This document shows, piece by piece, positions 4,656 through 62,193 of a DNA stretch of 64,000 nt. This stretch comes from Patescibacteria group bacterium (lineage in GTDB: Bacteria; Patescibacteriota; Patescibacteriia; Patescibacteriales; UBA12465), in the NCBI GenBank assembly GCA_041661685.1, contig JBAZTY010000001.1, forward strand, positions 128,691 to 192,690, written 5' to 3'. The first letter of the stretch is position 1. The number at the start of each line of letters is the position of its first letter. The notes beneath the pieces were generated by a model. It was not told where the DNA came from, did no database searches, and saw only the letters and a list, made by a program, of their open reading frames with translations. The translations under genes were made by a program, and so were the position numbers.

Positions 4656-5126
4656 ATGTTAGATATCACTCTCATCGCTGTTGGAAAAATAAAAGAATCT
4701 TTTTGGCGTGACGCTTTTGAAGAATATGCTAAGCGCCTTAAGCCTTATGTTCGGTTAAAGATTATAGAGCTACCCCCGGAGCCTTTTTCTAAAAGCACGA
4801 AAGAAAAAGTTAAAGAGATAGAAGGAAAGAGGATCATGGGTTATCTGGAAAAGCAGAGCCATGAATCGGGCGCATCTTTAGTCTATCTTTTGGCCGAACG
4901 CGGCCGAACCTTTGATTCTCCGACTCTGGCTGGCTGGCTGGAAAAGAATTCACCCCTAGTTTTAATCATCGGTGGCGCTTTAGGTTTTTCTGAGGAATTG
5001 TATGGGCGCTATCCTCAGATCTCTTTGTCGCTTCTGACTTTCCCGCATGAGCTAGCGCGCGTCGTCCTAATGGAACAGCTTTATCGCGCGGCCGCTATCT
5101 TAAACGGGAAAGAATACCATTATTAA
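4656..5126 (+). CDS. rlmH: 23S rRNA (pseudouridine1915-N3)-methyltransferase RlmH (SPOUT)
   Basis: MLDITLIAVGKIKE start and the GGALGFSEEL / LTFPHELARVVLMEQLYRA C-terminus are typical of RlmH. The ATG at 4656 is preferred over the TTG at 4611 given in the ORF track. Confidence 0.85.
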   Translation: MLDITLIAVGKIKESFWRDAFEEYAKRLKPYVRLKIIELPPEPFSKSTKEKVKEIEGKRIMGYLEKQSHESGASLVYLLAERGRTFDSPTLAGWLEKNSPLVLIIGGALGFSEELYGRYPQISLSLLTFPHELARVVLMEQLYRAAAILNGKEYHY

Positions 5127-5134
5127 TTAGAAAT

Positions 5135-5848
5135 ATGTCCGATTTGCCAAAATTGATCAAGGAAATCAAGAGTCATGAAAATAAACTCCAAGCCTCTATT
5201 TTGCAGCGTTTTTTTAAGACCGGTCCGAGCCAGTATGGCGAGGGAGACCTGTTTCTAGGCTTAAAAGTGCCTCTTCAGCGGCTTTTAGCCCGTAAATATG
5301 CCTATCTGTCCTTAAAAGACGTCGAGACGCTCCTGGCGAGTAAAATCCATGAGTTTCGGCTGGTCGGCTTGTTAATTTTAGTGGATAAATACGAAAAGGC
5401 GGGGAACAGAGGCGATAAGAAGAAAATTGTCGATTTTTATCTGGACCAGGTCAATCGCGTTAATAATTGGGATCTTGTCGATTTGTCGGTCTATAAGATT
5501 TTGGGAGATTTTCTTTTGGCGGAAAAAAATGCTTTGCAAGTATTAAAGCGCTTAGCCGGATCCAGGAATCTCTGGGAACGGCGCATGGCTATGGTGGCGA
5601 CTTATGCTTTTATCAAGAAAGGGCAGGCCGAGAAGACTATCCTGATAGCTGAGAGGTTGATAAAAGATGAGCATGATCTGATGCATAAAGCGGTCGGCTG
5701 GATGCTTAGAGAAATGGGCAAGCGGATAGATAAGAAGATTTTAACCGATTTTCTGGACAAACATTATCGTCGTCTGCCTCGGACGGCGCTGCGCTACGCC
5801 ATCGAGCGTCTTAGTCCGCGGGAAAGGGATCGCTATCTCGCTAAATAA
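5135..5848 (+). CDS. DNA alkylation repair protein (AlkD/AlkC-like HEAT-repeat glycosylase family)
   Basis: FFKTGPSQYGEGDLFLGLKVP, WDLVD and MHKAVGWMLRE motifs characteristic of the family. Confidence 0.75.
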   Translation: MSDLPKLIKEIKSHENKLQASILQRFFKTGPSQYGEGDLFLGLKVPLQRLLARKYAYLSLKDVETLLASKIHEFRLVGLLILVDKYEKAGNRGDKKKIVDFYLDQVNRVNNWDLVDLSVYKILGDFLLAEKNALQVLKRLAGSRNLWERRMAMVATYAFIKKGQAEKTILIAERLIKDEHDLMHKAVGWMLREMGKRIDKKILTDFLDKHYRRLPRTALRYAIERLSPRERDRYLAK

Positions 5849-10238: not shown

Positions 10239-10811
10239 ATGGTTAAGCGAGTAAAAACTATCCCGAGATTAATGTATGATATCCGACCTTCCCGGGTATT
10301 TCCGGGCGAAGTTGGAACTTTCGCGGTTCGTAATATCAAGAAAGGAGCCGTTATAGACGACGTTGATTCGCCGGAAGAAGTCGTCTTTATCCAGCAGCGC
10401 GATTTCAAGAAGCTTGATCCGATTACGCGCCGGCGGATAACGCGGTTCTGCGTTATGGATGAGGACGGAGAATATTGCGTACCAGCCGATCTCAATAATA
10501 TGGGCACTTCCTGGTATTTTAATCATAGCTGCGACTCTAATGTCTCCTATGATAAGCGGGGAAGCTTTATTGCGGCTAAAAATATTAAGAAAGATGAGGA
10601 GCTATTCCTGGATTATGGGCGCATGTATATTGATCCGAAATTGAAAATGAAATGCGCTTGCGGCGCGAAGAATTGCCGCGGCTTTATTACCGGGAACGAT
10701 TGGCTCAACCCGGAATTTCGGAAGAAGAATTTAGAGCTAATGTGGCCGGATATGAGGCGGTTGCCCGGGAAGAAAGGGCAGGCAGTTAAGCCCAAGAAGA
10801 GCATCAAATAA
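10239..10811 (+). CDS. SET-domain methyltransferase (190 aa) with a post-SET Cys motif
   Basis: GTFAVRNIKKGAVI, WYFNHSCDSN, ELFLDYG, CACGAKNCRG. Confidence 0.8.
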   Translation: MVKRVKTIPRLMYDIRPSRVFPGEVGTFAVRNIKKGAVIDDVDSPEEVVFIQQRDFKKLDPITRRRITRFCVMDEDGEYCVPADLNNMGTSWYFNHSCDSNVSYDKRGSFIAAKNIKKDEELFLDYGRMYIDPKLKMKCACGAKNCRGFITGNDWLNPEFRKKNLELMWPDMRRLPGKKGQAVKPKKSIK

Positions 10812-10838
10812 ATTAAATAGCTAAAAATAAAATCATCT

Positions 10839-11585
10839 ATGTTTTTAATCCCTGCTGATTATTATCAGATTAAGAAGACTAAGAAAAAAGGCCGCGGCGT
10901 CTTTGCGCGCCGCGAGATTCCGGCCGGAACTATTATCGGCGACTACGTCGGCTTATTGATCAAGGACGAGAAAGCGGAACTCCTGGAAAAGAAATACGGT
11001 AATGCCTGCTACTCTATGGATTATAATGATAACGGCTTGTCCATATTTCCGGTCGACGTCAAAGCTCCCGGCGTTCATCTGATTAATCATTCCTGCTCTT
11101 CTAATTGCGACGCTTATTTTTATTTCGGCCATACTTTGTATTTCGCTCTCCGTCGCATCTTGCCGGGAGAAGAATTGACGATTGATTACGGCTTCGATAC
11201 GGACAACAGCAATAAGAAAGAATTCTTGCATCCTTGCTTCTGTGGCAGTCCGTTCTGCCGCGGCACGATGTATACGAGCGACGCGAAATTAAGACGCTAC
11301 GGCGCCTTCTATCGTGCTGAAACTAAGGGGCAGAAATTTAAGACGTTCGCGGCTGGAAAAATATTATTGCCGCTAGAAAAATATCCGCCAGAGATACAAG
11401 ATAATGTCGTCTTTAATTTATTCGCAGACAGGGAAGCGGCGCCGCTTAATCAAGAAGATGAGAAGATGCCTAGCATTTCCGAATTGAGAAAACGCTTGCG
11501 AGAGAGCGGGCGCATCCTGAATTTTAAGAAGATTGGCTTGAAAGTTTCCGCTATCGTCGAGGGCCTGATCGTCTCCGGAAAATAG
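10839..11585 (+). CDS. SET-domain methyltransferase (248 aa) with a post-SET Cys motif and a C-terminal extension
   Basis: KGRGVFARREIPAGTIIGDY, LINHSCSSNC, EELTIDYGF, CFCGSPFCRG. Confidence 0.8.
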   Translation: MFLIPADYYQIKKTKKKGRGVFARREIPAGTIIGDYVGLLIKDEKAELLEKKYGNACYSMDYNDNGLSIFPVDVKAPGVHLINHSCSSNCDAYFYFGHTLYFALRRILPGEELTIDYGFDTDNSNKKEFLHPCFCGSPFCRGTMYTSDAKLRRYGAFYRAETKGQKFKTFAAGKILLPLEKYPPEIQDNVVFNLFADREAAPLNQEDEKMPSISELRKRLRESGRILNFKKIGLKVSAIVEGLIVSGK

Positions 11586-12406: not shown

Positions 12407-12674
12407 ATATTATCTTAATTCAGGCCTAGTTAAAAGTCAAGAGTGATTCCGCGCGTATTAGTAGAGTGCCTAGTCGGATTTGGCTGCCTGATTTGACTGG
12501 GATAATCCCAAAATAAGTCCGAGATAAGCTAGGTTTTATTCTTGCTTTTAGGCTCTTATTATGCTAGGATAAAGCCATAATAGAATAATCAATTTAGCGG
12601 CGGGTTCGTATTAGTTCCCGTTATTTTTTGTTAAAATCATTTAACGCTTTTTTAGCATTTATAAAAATCTTAAA

Positions 12675-13325: not shown

Positions 13326-14174
13326 ATGACTAACTCAGAATTGATCGCCAAACTGAATAACCTAAAGAGCATCGACCCCGATCAAAAATGGCTGGAAAGC
13401 AATCGGGAGCTTTTGTTATCCCAGGTTTCTAATTCTGGCGCGGAAACTTTGTCGACCTGGAGAGTTATCTTTATTAATGTCTCTAGCGTCATGAAATCAG
13501 CGGCTCAGCCAGTCTACGCTTTAGGAGCTTTTGTCCTCCTCCTGCTTACCGGCAGTTTATTCAGCGGCCAGCTTTTAGCCAGCACTAAGCCGAACGATTC
13601 TTTGTATATCGCGAGAATACTTTCTGAAAAAGTAAAACTGAATACGACTTTTGATTCAACGGCGCGTAATCGGATGGAAATGAAATTCGCCTCTAGCCAT
13701 GCTCAGGATATTACGGCGGTTTTAGCTGATCCGGCTTTTAATAATGAAGAGAACAAGGATCAGGTCGCGAAATTGAATAATAGCTTTAGTGAAGAAGTTA
13801 ATACCGTTAAAGAGAGTATTAGCCGTTTGAACGCGGCTATCGTTCCGGCCGCTAAGACCGGAGACGAGGTCGTTATCGCTGATAGCTCTAAGGACGCGCA
13901 GGGAATCCAGGTAGCGGATGGATCAGCTTTGAATGCCGCCGTCGCCACTATCGCCGCTAGTGCTCAGCCGGCCATTTCGGCGACCGCGACTTTAGTAGTT
14001 CCGGCCGGAATGAACCTGAAAGCGACTTCGGCGGAAATCGCCGCCAGTTCCACAGAAATCGCGGAACCGACCGCAGCGGACAAGATGATCGACGAAGCGA
14101 TTCAGCTATTCAGTTCCAAAGATTACGAGAAAGCGTCGGATAAATTAAAAGAAGTGAGTGAGACTATAAAATAA
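13326..14174 (+). CDS. Membrane-anchored protein downstream of the sigma factor (possible anti-sigma / DUF5667-like)
   Basis: Single TM helix (AAQPVYALGAFVLLLLTGSLF) after a ~50-aa cytoplasmic N-terminus, then an Ala/Ser-rich exterior. Role inferred from position only. Confidence 0.4.
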   Translation: MTNSELIAKLNNLKSIDPDQKWLESNRELLLSQVSNSGAETLSTWRVIFINVSSVMKSAAQPVYALGAFVLLLLTGSLFSGQLLASTKPNDSLYIARILSEKVKLNTTFDSTARNRMEMKFASSHAQDITAVLADPAFNNEENKDQVAKLNNSFSEEVNTVKESISRLNAAIVPAAKTGDEVVIADSSKDAQGIQVADGSALNAAVATIAASAQPAISATATLVVPAGMNLKATSAEIAASSTEIAEPTAADKMIDEAIQLFSSKDYEKASDKLKEVSETIK

Positions 14175-14664
14175 GCAAAGCGCTAAAGCGCGCGTTTGTT
14201 AGTTTATCTCCTTATTGGTTCCTCCAAGTTTAGAAGATTCGTCATCGACTCTGGACAATACCGGGTGAGATAAATTAACAAATTCGCGTTTACGGCTGTT
14301 TGCCGCGGATAGCGGATTGGCAGAACCCCGTCAAGGGTCGAGCTATATCGCAAGATGTAGTGGTTTTGTCCCTTATAAACCTTATTATCGATTCGAAGCC
14401 CAAACGATTCAGAGCTCGAAATGAGCGGTAAATCGGTTAAGCTTTTCTCCAGCCTTTGTGCAACACGCGCTAGGTTGGCAGAACTTATACGTAAGATCAG
14501 TCAGCCTTCGCCTTAAGCCTCAAGGGGTTGGTGGAGCGGGATTCCGACTGATTTACGACCCAGACTAGAGTTTAGATCTATCAGGGCGGAGAATCGAACC
14601 ACATCATTATGATCTGTTCCGACTACTATTGTCCGGACGATCAAAATGATATTAATCATTTCTT
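14175..14664 (+). other. 490-nt non-coding leader / candidate structured RNA upstream of the large surface-protein gene
   Basis: No ORF of meaningful size. GNRA-capped hairpin ctatatc-GCAA-gatgtag, UNCG-capped hairpin ctta-TACG-taag, duplicated decamer ttggcagaac, and GC above that of neighbouring intergenic DNA. Confidence 0.4.
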
Positions 14665-17600
14665 ATGAAAAAATTACGCAAATTCTTAACTGTCAGCGTA
14701 ATGGTATTAACCGTAGTGTTCACCAGTGGTGCTTTAAGCATCAATTCTGCCAAGGCTGCCGCTTCAACCGGCGACTTGATCAAAATGGCTGGCAACGCTT
14801 CTGTTTATTACCTCGGTGCTGACGGCAAGAGATATGTTTTCCCTAACTCCACTACCTATTTCTCTTGGTATTCAGATTTCAGCGGAGTAGTCACTATTCC
14901 GGCGGCTGAATTACAGAGCTATCCTTTGGGTGGCAATGTAACCATGAGACCAGGCACTAAGTTAGTGAAAATCACGACCGATCCTAAAGTTTACGCCGTT
15001 GAACCTAATGGCGTCTTAAGAGGGATCCAGACTGAAGCCCAGGCGGCTGCCTTATACGGCACCGACTGGAACAAGAGAGTCGTCGATGTTCCTGACGCTT
15101 TCTTCACCAACTACACCACCGGCGCTGCTTTAGCGACCGGCGCTACCCCGGCTGGTTCCTTAGTAAAGAACGCTGGCTCTGCTAGCATCTATTACTACGA
15201 TGGTTCTAGCTATAGATCCATCACCAACGAAGCCGCTATGATGGCTAACAGATTCCAGATGGCCAATGTTTTGACTATCAGCAATACTATTACTGCTGGC
15301 GGCAATTCTATTTCCTCTGCTGAATTCGTTAACGTCGCTCAGGGTGGCAATCTCGGCGGCACCGTTATTACCGGTTCCGGCTTAATGGTCAGCTTATCTG
15401 CTTCCACCCCGGCCGCGGCTTCCGTTCCTCAGAACGGCGCTCGCGTTCCGATGGCTAAGGTCAATTTGACTGCGGCTAACGATGGCGCAGTAACTGTCAA
15501 TTCTATCACTGTCAAGAGAATCGGCCTATCAACCTATAGCCAGATTGATAAGGTCTGGGCGGAAAAGGACGGCGTTATCGTCGCTTCTAAGAAGTCCATG
15601 AATTCCAATGACGAATCTATCCTGACTTTCTCCCCAGCTTTAACTGTTAACGCTGGCCAGACTGTTTCTTTAGATTTCATTGTTTCTTTGACCTCCGCTT
15701 CCGGCAACATCGGCTTGGGCATCGCTTCCGCTTCCGCGATTAGCGCTACCTCCGCTTCTGTCACCGGTTCTTTCCCGATCAACAGCAATTTGATGTCTCC
15801 GACATCTTACAGCGTTGTTAATCTAGGTCTTACCAGCACAACCACTACCGCCACTACCGTCAAGGTTGGTGACGAGAAAGTTGAGTTAGGTAAATTCACC
15901 GTAGATTTCAACACTTTAGTCGGCGGAACTTCTGCTTCTGCCGCTAAGGATGTTACCTTGAAGTCCATCATGATAAAGAACAATGGTACTGAAGATTTAT
16001 CTTCTGCGACTATGGATCTTTACTTGGAGAACGCTGGTAACAAAGTTTCCGTTAACACTGTTGTTAGCGACCGCTATGTTACTTTCTACTTCCCGAGCAC
16101 TGGCTTCGATGTCTTAAAGGACGATGCTTCCAAGATTTTCTATATCAAGGGAAATATCATTTCTAAGGACATTGCTGGCACTGGCAGCTTGGTATTCGTC
16201 TTGAATAAGAGCACTGATTTAGTCGGTTATGAAAAAGCCACCGGTTTCGGTGTCAATGTTTATAACGAGATTACTGTCGGCGCTACTGCCGCTGATGCTT
16301 TCGCTATTTCCACTGTAGATATCGATGCAGGTAAGCTTTCTGTTTCTAAGAAATCTACCTCTCCTTCCGATACTACTATCGTCAAGGGCACCGATAACTT
16401 AATGTTATTGGCTAACGTCCATGCTGACGAAGCGATTGTCGCCGATGGCTTGAAGATTAAGTACACTACCGGCACTGCTGCTTCTACTACTGATCAGTTT
16501 GAGTTAGTTAGAGTTTATTTGAATGGTGTTCTATTAGACTCTTTCTATCCGTCTGTTAGCACTAGCTCCGACCTTTATGCGACTATTGACAGCACCTTGA
16601 ATTTAGTCAAGGGCGACAATGAAGTTAAGGTTACGGCTAAAGCAAAGACTAATGCTACTAATGGTGCCGCCATCAAGTTCGTCTTAGACACTACTATGTT
16701 TGATGGTCAGAACGCTGAATATGTTGTCTCTGGCAACACCGTCTCTACTACCGATTTAGGTAATATGGGCTCTGCTACCGGCGCTTTATTCACCGTTGCT
16801 ACCGCGGTTCTTACTACTGTTAAGAGTGACGGTTATTCTGATAACAAGGTTATTGTCCAGGGCAGCACTGATGTTTCTTTGGGTAAGTTTACCTTAAAGG
16901 CTACTAATGATGACATCAAGGTTACTTCTATTACCTTGGGTGCCAACATTGGCAGTACCTCAGCGACTAACATCAATGATATGAAGTTGTTTGTTGACGG
17001 TTCCCAGGTCGGCAGCACTGTCGATTTCGGTTCCACCGGCTCCACCTTCTCTTCATTAAACTTCACCATCGCCAAGGATTCTACCAAGGCTATCGAATTG
17101 AAGGGTTCCTTTGATTCTTCCGCTACCGGTACTTTCCAGACTTTGATGACTGTTAATGCTCAGGACGCTGCTCGTGGTACCGCGATTACTTCTGGCAACT
17201 TAGCGACTTCTACTTTGTTCGCTACTGCTAGCTCCGGTTCTTTGAACGTCGAATTGGGTGGCAACACCCCTGCTTCCGCTATCTTAGCCTCTAAGGCTAC
17301 CGAGCAGGAAGTTGCTCAGTTCAAGTTCACCGCCGTCAATGACAGCGCTGATTTGACTGAAATCAATGTTATCAATGACTCAGATGCAAGTACTCCTAAC
17401 ACGGCTACTTCAAGTGCTGATGCTAGAATCGCTTCCATCAAGTTATATGATGGCGCTACTTTGATCGATAGCTTCGTACCGGTTTCCGGTGCTGGCAAGT
17501 TCACTATCTCTTCTGGCGAAGTAAAGATCGATGCTAATTTGAGCAAGACTTTATCCGTCAAGGTTGTTTTGAACAACATCGATAATGATGTCAATGCTAC

Positions 17601-18398: not shown

Positions 18399-18773
18399 AT
18401 GATATATAATGAAGAGTATAAAGTTAAGTTTTATCGCGATAGTAGGACAGGGAAGAGTCCCGTATACAAGTATATTTGGAGTTTGGATAAAAAATATCGT
18501 TCAAAGATTTATAAGTACATTAATTATCTTAGAGATAACGACGGATATTTAGATGAACCATATAGTCGCCATATCATTGATAAAATAAGAGAGCTAAGAG
18601 TTGATTTTGCTAACAATCATTATCGAATTTTTTATTTTATCTTCGTAGAAAAGAAAATTATTTTTTTACATGCTTATTTAAAAAAGACTGAGAAAGCGCC
18701 GAATAAAGAAATAGATACAGCTTTACGTAATTATTGTGATGTTATAAATAATCCTAGATTATATGAAAAATAA
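18399..18773 (+). CDS. Type II toxin, RelE/ParE superfamily (Gp49/HigB-like)
   Basis: KVKFYRDSRTGKSPVYKYI, IRELRVDFANNHYRIFYFIFVEKKIIFLHAYLKKTEKAP. Overlaps the downstream HTH gene by 11 nt. Confidence 0.75.
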   Translation: MIYNEEYKVKFYRDSRTGKSPVYKYIWSLDKKYRSKIYKYINYLRDNDGYLDEPYSRHIIDKIRELRVDFANNHYRIFYFIFVEKKIIFLHAYLKKTEKAPNKEIDTALRNYCDVINNPRLYEK

Positions 18774-19065
18774 AAAAAACATTCCCAAGGCAATCGATTT
18801 TGATGATGTATTGGCCAAAGAACTGAAAGATCCTGAGTTTAAGAAGCTTTTTGATGAATATGGCCGTCAGCTTGATATAGCTTATAATATTATTCAACTG
18901 CGTAAAGCCAAAAAAATGAGCCAGCTTGAATTGGCTCGAAAAATAGGCACGACTCAGAGTAATATTGCCAGGATTGAAGGCGGTCGCCAGAATTTTACTA
19001 TCAATCTTCTTCAGAAAGTAGCCGAAGCTTTGGATTCTAATCTAAAAGTAAGTTTTACCAATTAA
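18763..19065 (+). CDS. XRE-family helix-turn-helix antitoxin (HigA-like)
   Basis: LRKAKKMSQLELARKIGTTQSNIARIEGGRQNFTINLLQKVAEAL. Confidence 0.8.
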   Translation: MKNKKNIPKAIDFDDVLAKELKDPEFKKLFDEYGRQLDIAYNIIQLRKAKKMSQLELARKIGTTQSNIARIEGGRQNFTINLLQKVAEALDSNLKVSFTN

Positions 19066-29269: not shown

Positions 29270-29300
29270 AAAAGGCCACCTTAGGGTGGCCTTTCTCTTG
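29270..29300 (+). terminator. Intrinsic terminator after the 1289-aa gene
   Basis: aaaaaggccacc-ttag-ggtggccttt followed by a T-rich tract. Confidence 0.8.
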
Positions 29301-29338
29301 CTTTTTTTCGGCTTTTCTTGTATTATGAAAACGTTATT

Positions 29339-29710
29339 AGAGTAAGCGGGCGATTGCTCTATTTTTAATAGAGAGGAAAGTCCGGACTTCGCAATTTGTT
29401 TATTCATAAGCAAATATGATAGTGGGTAACGCCCACCGGTCCGCCGTCAGGCGGATTAGGGAAAGTGCCACAGAGACTATACTAATTCTGGAATTTATTT
29501 GACAGAATCAAAGGTGAAAAGAGGCTGGATGTCCTTCGGGGCTACCGGTTTCGGCCTCCGGCGACGGAGATGCCGTGGTAAACCCTATCAGAAGCAAGAG
29601 CAAACTAGCCCGTTCGCGGGTTAGAAAAAGTAGCTCGCTTGAGCTCGCCAGCAATGGCGAGCCTAGATAAATGATCGCTAGAACAGAATCCGGCTTACGG
29701 CTGCTCTAAT
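29339..29710 (+). ncRNA. rnpB: RNase P RNA, bacterial type A
   Basis: Universal blocks GAGGAAAGTCCGGAC, GGGTAACGCCCACC, AGTGCCACAGAGA, GGTAAACCC, CTTGAGC...GCCTAGATAAATGATCGC and ACAGAATCCGGCTTAC. 5' agag pairs with 3' ctct (P1). Ends are good to about +/-5 nt. Confidence 0.9.
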
Positions 29711-29736
29711 AACCTTAGTCAACAAAAACTTCACAT

Positions 29737-32275: not shown

Positions 32276-32308
32276 GAAGATTTTTAATATAAAAAAAGTT
32301 TTTTGTAT

Positions 32309-32343
32309 AAAAAAAGGGGATAAGTTTCTCAATACTTATCCCC
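32309..32343 (-). terminator. Strong minus-strand-only intrinsic terminator with no minus-strand CDS to serve
   Basis: The minus strand reads GGGGATAAGT-attgagaa-ACTTATCCCC followed by TTTTTTT. On the plus strand the U-run is absent. Confidence 0.8.
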
Positions 32344-32654
32344 GACATGACGAAGGTTACGACACTGAAATCAGAATGATTTATCTCTAATTCTATGAGC
32401 TTTGGGCAATCGCATTGAGCTGCAGTATGTTTACCTTGCGTGCGACCGGCGGGCTATAAAATGATAGAGAATTAAGTTTTTATTACCAATGTCAGACCGC
32501 GTACCATGCCGAGACTAATTGATTAATGATTGTGCACCCGGGTGCAGAAATAATAAATTTTTCGCTAGTTATTACCCGAACAGAGGTTTCCTCTTATTGG
32601 TAGCTAACTCGAAATCATGGTTTGGTTTTGATGCCAAGCAGTTCAATCAGTCTT
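32344..32654 (-). ncRNA. Candidate unclassified non-coding transcript, bounded by a minus-strand promoter and terminator (about 345 nt including the terminator at 32309-32343)
   Basis: No ORF above about 12 codons on the minus strand. Internal hairpins include the tgcacccgggtgca palindrome and agagg-aaa-cctct. I recognised no family. Confidence 0.35.
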
Positions 32655-32660
32655 AACGAC

Positions 32661-32689
32661 ATCCTAGTCCTTGCCTTAATCATTGTCAA
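32661..32689 (-). promoter_or_regulatory. Minus-strand sigma-70-type promoter TTGACA-17 nt-TAGGAT
   Basis: The reverse complement of 32684-32689 is TTGACA and that of 32661-32666 is TAGGAT. The spacer is exactly 17 nt. Confidence 0.5.
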
Positions 32690-32724
32690 GAGTCTCAAAA
32701 AGTCTAAAATATCAGTAAAGTCTT

Positions 32725-58818: not shown

Positions 58819-58876
58819 ATTTTTGATAACTAAAAGGGAGCGGCTCCGTGCACACAAACCAATATCACTAAAAGCA

Positions 58877-58918
58877 ATACTTGTCTGTCAGAACCGCCCC
58901 CTTTTAGGGGACAAGTAT
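58877..58918. repeat. Interrupted inverted repeat upstream of the recombinase gene
   Basis: atacttgt ... acaagtat outer arms with an inner cccc-tttta-gggg. Confidence 0.4.
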
Positions 58919-58935
58919 AAAAAAAGCCTTTAGTA

Positions 58936-59118
58936 TTATGTTTGATTTGTGTGCTTCTTCATATTAGCAAAATGTCTAGATAATTTCAACTTTTTTAAAC
59001 CGGAAAAATAGGTGACTAATTGGTGGCCAAGTTCAAACGCCTCGGAATCCGTCAGATCTCGTCCGTAATCATCTTTGATGATTATCTTCAGTTGTTCCAG
59101 TCTGAACTTGCTAATCAT
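58936..59118 (-). CDS. Hypothetical small protein (60 aa)
   Basis: Co-oriented ORF within the island. No motif. Confidence 0.35.
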   Translation of the reverse strand: MISKFRLEQLKIIIKDDYGRDLTDSEAFELGHQLVTYFSGLKKLKLSRHFANMKKHTNQT

Positions 59119-59155
59119 AAATAATATTTATCGTAAAAAGTTTGTGCAGGACTTT

Positions 59156-59335
59156 TTACTCAATTTCTTTAAGGGCTCTTTCATAAGAGGCTAATTTTCT
59201 CTTAAGCATTTCGGTATCGCTTGAATGCTCAAAACTTTCTCCGGCCTCTAAAGCTTTTTTCATTCCGTTAATTTTTCCGACCAGCCAGGCGTGATAGCCG
59301 TAAGTGCCGAAATTAATTTTTTCTAAGTTTGCCAT
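59156..59335 (-). CDS. Hypothetical small protein (59 aa; not in the supplied ORF track)
   Basis: My translation of the minus strand is MANLEKINFGTYGYHAWLVGKINGMKKALEAGESFEHSSDTEMLKRKLASYERALKEIE. Its start lies 5 nt downstream of the Rep stop. Confidence 0.35.
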   Translation of the reverse strand: MANLEKINFGTYGYHAWLVGKINGMKKALEAGESFEHSSDTEMLKRKLASYERALKEIE

Positions 59336-59340
59336 ATTGT

Positions 59341-61560: not shown

Positions 61561-61789
61561 AGTGAGCTTATTTTATAACGTAAAGTTTTAATAGTCAAAA
61601 GCAGAGAAACGGGGTGGATTGTCTATCTGTGGCTTCTCATTTTAGCGTCAGCTTATCGCCTCTCAAGGTAGTGCCTGTGGCCTCCACTTTGACTGTCGCA
61701 AGCCATCAGACGCTGTCTCATTTCGTGCCGATAGATAATCTAAGGCGACGTTATCCGGCAATTTAATATCAGTCGCTACATTTAATTTT

Positions 61790-62083
61790 ATGACTATATC
61801 AGTCAAATCAAATTGGACAGGTTCAGAGAGCACCTCTGATCTTGTTAGAAAGCAGATTGCCGAGCGTTGGGGCGAAGATGAAGCTAAACGCTATAATCCG
61901 TTTGTTAATTGCTTCACCTTTAACGGTTGGCTTAAAAACGGCTATGTCGTTCGTAAGGACGAAAAGGCTATCCGGTCTTTCATTATCGTTGAGAAGAAAG
62001 ATAAGAAAACTGGAGCGGTGATAGAAAAGCGTCCTAAGACGATTTACCTTTTCTACGAGAAACAGGTTGAAGCGCAAGCTTAA
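61790..62083 (+). CDS. Small protein with weak resemblance to the ArdC N-terminal ssDNA-binding domain
   Basis: FTFNGWLKNGYVVRKDEKAI resembles the (L)TF.QA..LGG.VRKGEK motif. Low-confidence, motif-level only. Confidence 0.3.
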   Translation: MTISVKSNWTGSESTSDLVRKQIAERWGEDEAKRYNPFVNCFTFNGWLKNGYVVRKDEKAIRSFIIVEKKDKKTGAVIEKRPKTIYLFYEKQVEAQA

Positions 62084-62090
62084 CAAATTC

Positions 62091-62126
62091 AGGAGCTGAC
62101 TCTTAAAGGGTTGGCTCCTTTTTTTG
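62091..62126 (+). terminator. Intrinsic terminator after the ArdC-N-like ORF
   Basis: ggagc ... gctcc stem followed by ttttttt. Confidence 0.55.
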
Positions 62127-62193
62127 TATAGGCAATAGCCATTTGATTTTATTGTAGTTAAAAATAAAAGAGCTCAGTTTAGACTGAACTTTT

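Follow-up and report, generated by a model that had tools for sequence, protein, structure and literature searches.

Why does a bacterium with a small genome keep almost half a kilobase of non-coding DNA in front of one gene? The question is raised by a 64,000-nucleotide (nt) stretch of contig JBAZTY010000001.1 from a Patescibacteria group bacterium, referred to here as the window. A 490-nt spacer (14175-14664) lies there between the gene for a DUF5667 protein and the ATG that opens the gene for a large secreted protein, putatively and, as judged from its sequence, plausibly the main surface (S-layer-like) protein of the cell. Patescibacteria (the candidate phyla radiation, CPR) are uncultured and have genomes of about 1 Mb with very short spacers. 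In such a genome, about 0.5 kb of constrained non-coding sequence before a single gene implies an important function. An earlier note on this DNA had proposed either a structured leader or an independent non-coding RNA (ncRNA). The proposal is supported, and the evidence favours the leader. Positions 14186-14664 probably specify a plus-strand RNA of about 470 nt that acts in cis as the 5' leader of the surface-protein messenger RNA (mRNA). The best reading is that this leader RNA, which is absent from Rfam 15, represents a new family.

The spacer was compared with the other window spacers of at least 150 nt. Its G+C fraction (GC) was 0.46, the same as that of the RNase P RNA spacer (29270-29736), compared with 0.23-0.40 in the twelve others. 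The class A RNase P RNA occupies 29337-29713 of the plus strand (182 bits), in the sole other spacer of equally high GC. Only one gap in the window is longer, and it lies near the window end (61561-62193, 633 nt). The results showed that the plus-strand minimum free energy of the gap was -167.4 kcal/mol, against -131.5 +/- 5.9 kcal/mol for dinucleotide-shuffled controls (z = -6.0). The minus strand gave z = -4.0. Three other long spacers (61561-62193, 58858-59340 and 32276-32724, of 633, 483 and 449 nt, with GC of 0.36-0.40) reached only -2.4 to -3.4. The earlier note was therefore accurate in calling the region GC-richer than other spacers, the longest gap in the core of the window, and hairpin-dense. 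Its individual features were all located in the non-coding gap: the ctatatc-GCAA-gatgtag hairpin (14343-14360), the ctta-TACG-taag hairpin (14484-14495), a ccagcc/ggttgg helix, and two copies of TTGGCAGAAC at 14317 and 14475.

A search with the DUF5667 protein returned 10 loci from genome assemblies. Five of them are labelled Candidatus Falkowbacteria or Patescibacteria, and the other five are labelled "uncultured Gammaproteobacteria", evidently by mistake; the GenBank titles of L004, L006, L010 and L012 read "uncultured Gammaproteobacteria bacterium" despite a Patescibacteria-type locus. In nine more distant species, the DUF5667 protein was 46-54% identical, and the downstream spacer was matched by nhmmer at E = 1e-35 to 1e-50. 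Metagenomes were scanned for a two-part motif taken from the invariant core of the element (a 22-nt exact pattern). This gave 91 contigs, of which six were set aside as chance matches in coding DNA of high GC. In the approximately 85 true loci, every contig that is long enough has the element directly before the gene for a homologue of the large protein (about 1,170 amino acids), and the element is preceded by the DUF5667 gene and the gene of an extracytoplasmic function (ECF) sigma factor wherever the contig extends in that direction.

Nucleotide identity to the window was determined in the nine other species, with the near-identical L004 left out. It was 82-91% for the core (14428-14556); among the neighbouring genes, HU reached 74-84%, sigma 67-75% and DUF5667 56-63%. 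The core is thus the most conserved DNA of the neighbourhood. Its identity to L004, the nearest relative, was 98%. A covariance model of the core (R1) found a single copy in the window, on the plus strand (144.7 bits), and one copy at each related locus.

In a first alignment of 11 sequences, RNAalifold predicted 106 pairs, 27 of them with compensatory changes. Alignment A2 contained 64 unique full-length sequences, and its consensus structure was tested against slid and shuffled controls. In the consensus, 92.7% of cells were paired, against 35-48% when the partners were slid by 1-3 columns. Changes on both sides were present in 56 of 121 consensus pairs. Double-change cells numbered 511, against 174 +/- 12 after shuffling, and none of 500 shuffles attained any observed measure. 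Compensatory pairs thus exceed both kinds of control, which is what is found in a conserved structured RNA in general. Over all helices, G.U and A.C cells numbered 848 and 147, and the G.U excess was present in each helix. This indicates that the plus strand is the RNA, because A.C cells would be the wobble pairs of a minus-strand RNA. The gap almost certainly contains a genuine plus-strand structured RNA.

The same data bear on the possibility that the region acts as DNA, as a promoter or operator region with palindromic sites, or that it is a decayed pseudogene or a small open reading frame (ORF). The arms of the first hairpin, D1, are a conserved inverted repeat that could provide two half-sites. 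A gene caller placed a 48-aa ORF on the minus strand at 14513-14659 in near-identical strains, and the minus strand of the gap has a stop-free stretch of 98 codons. However, the asymmetry of G.U over A.C (158:21 in D1 itself) fits a plus-strand RNA and argues against a purely DNA-level palindrome, and compensatory changes occur within helices of variable sequence. Six-frame translation of the stop-free segments of the gap gave no Pfam match. The longest open stretch ranged from 48 to 123 codons among members and switched strand, and indels in the most conserved part of the alignment were 1-2 nt long and broke the frame. A coding gene or pseudogene was ruled out on these three grounds, and we consider this whole group of explanations extremely improbable.

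The RNA was searched for a known identity. At gathering thresholds, an Rfam 15 scan of the whole window returned only the RNase P RNA and two transfer RNAs (tRNAs). A permissive scan of 14000-14800 (E <= 10) gave three chance matches to eukaryotic families, whose scores of 15-21 bits fell short of the thresholds (62-80). No Rfam 15 family was matched, whether riboswitches, T-box, 6S, signal recognition particle (SRP) RNA, transfer-messenger RNA (tmRNA), OLE, GOLLD, ROOL, raiA, HEARO or ribozymes. ARAGORN found no tRNA or tmRNA in the gap region. A distant blastn search against phage and plasmid collections returned no match to the gap, a pattern scan of viral contigs gave 0 matches, and no description of the leader element was found in the literature.

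Features of SRP and 6S RNA were also sought by eye on both strands, and both were ruled out; the resemblances (GGAUUCCGAC; minus-strand CCACCA) are unconserved or lack the required arms. Standard and permuted tmRNA were ruled out by the lack of a T-arm, of an acceptor stem with G3:U70 and of a conserved tag reading frame. The likeness to tmRNA is short only: GGGAUUCCGAC of the gap resembles GGAUUCGAC, found in the 5' domain of tmRNA, and ..CCCGCUCCACCA can be read on the minus strand, whereas the minus-strand 'CCACCA' of the window is 'CCGCCA' in relatives.

The earlier note had found no known RNA family by inspection, and this stands after the covariance-model search. The alignment of homologous upstream regions that it had advised gave strong conservation and strong compensatory changes, and the decayed pseudogene that it had named as a possible refutation received no support from the six-frame search. 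Its choice of the plus strand is borne out by the counts of G.U and A.C cells. The argument that it gave for this choice fails to generalise, because the GCAA and UACG tetraloops are specific to the lineage of the window and the loops of relatives differ in sequence and length.

The consensus fold consists of several domains, whose coordinates are collected in the table below together with those of the adjoining genes. D1 begins 12 nt past the DUF5667 stop. Its arms, GUUUGUUAGUUUAUCUC and GAGAUAAAUUAACAAAU, form inverted repeat I1 and are strongly conserved; helix 1 is 95.3% paired, with double changes in 8 pairs. In the window, the variable insertion site behind it forms a small lineage-specific hairpin; in relatives the site is missing or much longer. 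D2 has a conserved internal loop, GUCAAGGGUCGAG (GUCAAGG(G)UCGAG), and a variable, covarying apical hairpin (14342-14362) that contains the GCAA hairpin. Double changes were present in 12 of 14 pairs of helices 7 and 8. The long-range helix P0, with double changes in all 8 pairs, surrounds a variable hairpin, the core and a variable linker. The core includes GCUUUUCUCCAGC, CAACACGCG, GGCAGAACUU, CCUUAAGCC and GAGCGGGAUUCCGACUGAUUUAC, and its hairpin at 14473-14506 bears the UACG loop. A pseudoknot between the core loop CAACACGCG and the base of D1 was considered and rejected for want of covariation. D4 has an inner hairpin, GUUCCGAC-UACUAUU-GUCCGGAC, with a conserved loop, and double changes in 12 of 18 pairs of helices 17 and 18. 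It ends 16 nt upstream of the ATG. The start context, ..UUAnUAUUAnUU-AUGAAAAAA, is kept across the relatives in alignment A2, which marks 14665 as the real start.

Table 1. Positions of the leader domains and of the adjoining genes in the window.
Feature	Start	End	Strand	Description
ECF-type sigma-70 factor gene	12675	13259	+	Pfam Sigma70_r2/r4; NCBIfam sigma70-ECF superfamily
DUF5667 protein gene	13326	14174	+	Weak Pfam DUF5667 match; Uhrbacteria homologue has a clear DUF5667 match
D1	14186	14291	+	Long hairpin; outer stem of about 24 base pairs (bp), 14186-14210 with 14267-14291; structured apex 14223-14255
Variable insertion site	14292	14313	+	Between D1 and D2; columns 243-311 of alignment A2
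D2	14314	14372	+	Lower stem pairs UUGGCAGAACC with GGUUUUGUCC; helices 7 and 8
P0	14387	14598	+	Long-range helix, 14387-14394 with 14591-14598; inverted repeat I2, helix 9
Core domain	14428	14556	+	Near-invariant, about 130 nt; closing stem P1, 14428-14438 with 14546-14556 (11 bp)
D4	14605	14648	+	Start-proximal hairpin; outer stem 14605-14612 with 14641-14648
Start region	14649	14667	+	16 A/U-rich nt (14649-14664) without a Shine-Dalgarno (SD) site, then ATG at 14665
Large secreted-protein gene	14665	18201	+	1,178 amino acids (aa); signal peptide; Ser/Thr/Ala/Val-rich
Intrinsic terminator	18238	18261	+	Canonical, after the surface-protein gene; GAGCCCCC-GCAA-GGGGGCUC-UUUU

To which gene does the element belong? 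Two loci carry insertions between the DUF5667 gene and D1. In L012, the insertion is an S-adenosylmethionine (SAM) methyltransferase gene (4839-5642), and in L056 it is a HicA/HicB-like toxin-antitoxin pair, about 500 nt upstream of D1. D1 follows the inserted genes directly in both, which indicates that the whole element goes with the downstream gene rather than with the sigma operon. Thus the 5' foot of D1 marks a unit boundary and a tolerated point of insertion. These loci bear on the idea that the gap is a 3' untranslated region (UTR), terminator or processing region of the sigma-DUF5667 operon, outside the downstream transcript. The short distance from the DUF5667 stop to D1 would suit this idea, and in the window and several relatives a short GC hairpin with GUUUGUUAGUUUAU behind it, just 5' of D1, resembles a terminator. 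However, the element remains beside the surface-protein gene where insertions part DUF5667 from D1, conserved structure continues for 370 nt past D1, and putative transcript contigs hold D2 to D4 without DUF5667. We regard this explanation as very improbable.

The putative transcript contigs number nine (L018, L020, L029, L036, L045, L062, L075, L091 and L101); they measure 3.9-4.05 kb, come from at least five species and contain only the leader and the large ORF. In eight of them the sequence opens roughly 4-20 nt beyond the 3' foot of D1, and in the ninth 10 nt before D1, so that most of the 5' ends fall at the variable insertion site. Their 3' ends lie 1-56 nt past the stop codon, for several of them in the 5' arm of the terminator stem. 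L043, a tenth contig, is bounded in the same way. Processing or the start of transcription may account for the end just 3' of D1, or the assembly may have broken off there at a stable hairpin.

Canonical intrinsic terminators are used in this genome, e.g., after the HU gene and after the large gene, and a strict terminator was found within 120 nt past the stop of the large gene in 19 of 30 relatives. Between the core and the ATG, a strict terminator was found in none of 62 leaders. Taken together, the conserved start context, the terminator pattern, the insertions and the contigs point to a probable monocistronic mRNA, presumably abundant, whose leader would measure about 370-480 nt.

These data also weigh on the possibility of an independent, stable, trans-acting ncRNA that is merely located upstream of the surface-protein gene. 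Its GC and conservation are like those of the RNase P RNA gene of the window, its core is more conserved than any neighbouring gene, and its multi-domain architecture is elaborate. Against this stand the missing terminator between the core and the ATG, with D4 ending so close to the start codon; the strict linkage to one gene in about 85 loci; the contigs that run unbroken from D2 into the ORF; and the occurrence of one copy per locus with no other in the window. An independent ncRNA is quite unlikely.

The leader reading was then considered in terms of mechanism. In S-layer protein mRNAs, stem-loops in the 5' UTR lengthen the half-life and raise expression (PMC10221546). On this precedent, we adopted a cis-acting leader with stabilising 5'-proximal hairpins. 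The mechanism to which we commit with moderate confidence, by analogy, is a stabilising leader combined with a factor-binding core. The leader and the ORF would be transcribed as a single abundant monocistronic mRNA. The stable 5' end of this mRNA would lie just 3' of D1, and the primary start probably lies just 5' of D1. The compact 5' structures would shield a very highly expressed mRNA from 5'-end-dependent decay, as S-layer leaders do. The core probably binds a conserved partner, because simple stabilisers need no 130 near-invariant nt. As the site for such a partner (a protein, RNA polymerase or the ribosome, or a small molecule), the core would tune surface-protein expression, and the neighbouring envelope-signalling pair, ECF sigma/DUF5667, may be linked to this tuning. 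The candidate partners would be a regulatory protein tied to ECF sigma/DUF5667, RNA polymerase (processive antitermination through the 3.5-kb gene), the ribosome or a small molecule.

Several points weigh against a leader of this kind. The conservation of about 130 consecutive nt far exceeds what simple stabilising hairpins need for protection from decay, so that stabilisation alone is an incomplete account. The exact 22-nt search pattern inflated the apparent invariance of the core at those positions. The interior of the core has two GGYUGG and two CAGCC-like segments that can form competing helices, and these helices vary solely from G-C to G.U. At the D2 apex and its U-rich flank GGUUUUGU, the strict terminator test was passed in 5 of 62 leaders, which hints at attenuation. 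The transcript-like nature of the ~4-kb contigs is judged from their boundaries and from Joint Genome Institute (JGI) contig numbers unsorted by length, which under the JGI naming scheme would suggest transcript assemblies. Finally, no convincing promoter was located near D1. The TGGACA/TAAATT pair in D1 was rejected because its spacing is only 11-13 nt, an ECF-like GGTTAC...CGTC motif was rejected because it is not conserved, and nothing near D1 corresponds to the clear sigma-70-type promoter that precedes the sigma gene (CTTGCTTT-N17-TGnTAnnAT).

Some of these points would suit the main alternative, a ligand- or protein-responsive leader (riboswitch-like or an attenuator) with the core as sensor and D2 or D4 as the expression platform for read-through or translation. 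The sequence conservation of the core is of riboswitch grade. The D2 apex with its flank passed a lenient terminator test in many more leaders than the strict one, and the adjoining ECF sigma/DUF5667 pair suggests regulated expression. However, even at E <= 10, the Rfam riboswitch and T-box models gave no match. All domains can form together in the consensus fold, and no alternative pairs of mutually exclusive helices came to light. Compared with the canonical terminators of this genome, D2 has a poor U-tract, and the transcript-like contigs continue through D2. A switching leader is therefore unlikely in our view. It is also rather unlikely, in our view, that the leader, and its core most of all, is a new Falkowbacteria-specific class of functional RNA, with analogues in other Patescibacteria, that governs the main surface protein as a sensor (riboswitch or protein-responsive), as a processive antitermination or ribosome-recruiting element in a host that lacks SD sites, or as the RNA partner of ECF sigma/DUF5667.

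The S-layer leaders known so far have a simple, short structure of tens to about 150 nt and little sequence conservation. Like them (e.g., that of Lactobacillus slpA), the present leader has stable hairpins near its 5' end and adjoins the gene of a secreted surface protein, here a putatively very abundant one with which it would probably be co-transcribed. Unlike them, it has about 470 nt, four to five covarying domains and a near-invariant core of 130 nt; in addition, its host is almost entirely without SD sites, and stabilisation is proposed here by analogy. OLE, GOLLD, ROOL, raiA and HEARO RNAs are likewise large, GC-enriched relative to spacers, lineage-restricted and rich in covarying helices. 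The present RNA differs in matching no Rfam model, and it abuts a start codon without a terminator and is tied to one gene, in which most of those RNAs differ. Riboswitches, T-box and antitermination leaders (EAR, put) share the position as a cis 5' leader, a highly conserved folded domain and a long downstream gene, but here no curated class was matched and no ligand or switching helices were identified. In kind, this is a structured surface-protein mRNA leader whose size, modularity and sequence constraint go well beyond known examples.

How widely is such a leader distributed? In L107 (Candidatus Uhrbacteria, JADZEJ010000001.1), from another class of Patescibacteria, the same order of sigma gene, DUF5667 gene, gap and homologue is present. 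The gap of L107 (3721-4000, 280 nt) is strongly structured (z = -5.7). It contains CAAGGUCGA followed directly by a hairpin, as in D2, so that a CAAGGTCGA-plus-hairpin motif is shared. The Falkowbacteria core was not found in this gap. The more distant homologues L105, L106 and L108 are without sigma-DUF5667 synteny. Long structured leaders may be a general feature of the surface gene in part of the Patescibacteria, and, on the sequence of this single locus, the D2-like motif would be the only part that is shared more widely.

The element would be one of few candidate large structured RNAs specific to the CPR. It controls, or at least accompanies, the gene of the apparent dominant surface protein, which is likely central to the episymbiotic lifestyle. 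It provides an alignable RNA family for Rfam-style curation (model R1, about 70 unique core sequences), and it makes a link between ECF sigma signalling and surface-layer expression testable. It may also be an example of how a highly expressed gene is handled without SD sites.

The downstream protein had no domain match in Pfam or NCBIfam, and exact-protein look-ups returned nothing on record. Its N-terminal part has 1,243 homologues, mostly in Patescibacteria, several of which are fused to Ig-like (Big) domains. Most database homologues are 'partial' and located at contig ends, which suggests that a variable, repetitive surface gene commonly breaks metagenome assemblies. An SD-like motif within 25 nt upstream of the start was found in 2 of 51 window genes, and starts are preceded by A/U-rich sequence. 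This indicates that translation initiation is essentially SD-independent.

Upstream, the DUF5667 protein is a putative anti-sigma partner of the ECF sigma factor. The sigma-70-type promoter of the sigma gene (window 12540-12640) is shared by 48 relatives; behind it, a conserved GCGGG...UUCCCGUUAUUUUUUGUUAAAA element resembles a leader hairpin or an attenuator with a U-run. Immediately after the surface-protein gene, the plus strand (18399-19065) encodes a Gp49-like (HigB-type) toxin and a helix-turn-helix (HTH) antitoxin, and L073 has a Gp49 homologue at the same position. The gap at 58858-59340 holds an apparent unannotated small ORF on its minus strand, with the start AUGGCAAACUUAGAAAAA. Beside the HU gene, two adjoining SET-domain (lysine methyltransferase-like) genes are present on the plus strand (10239-11585), an uncommon feature in bacteria. 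About a dozen relatives retain at least one of the SET genes.

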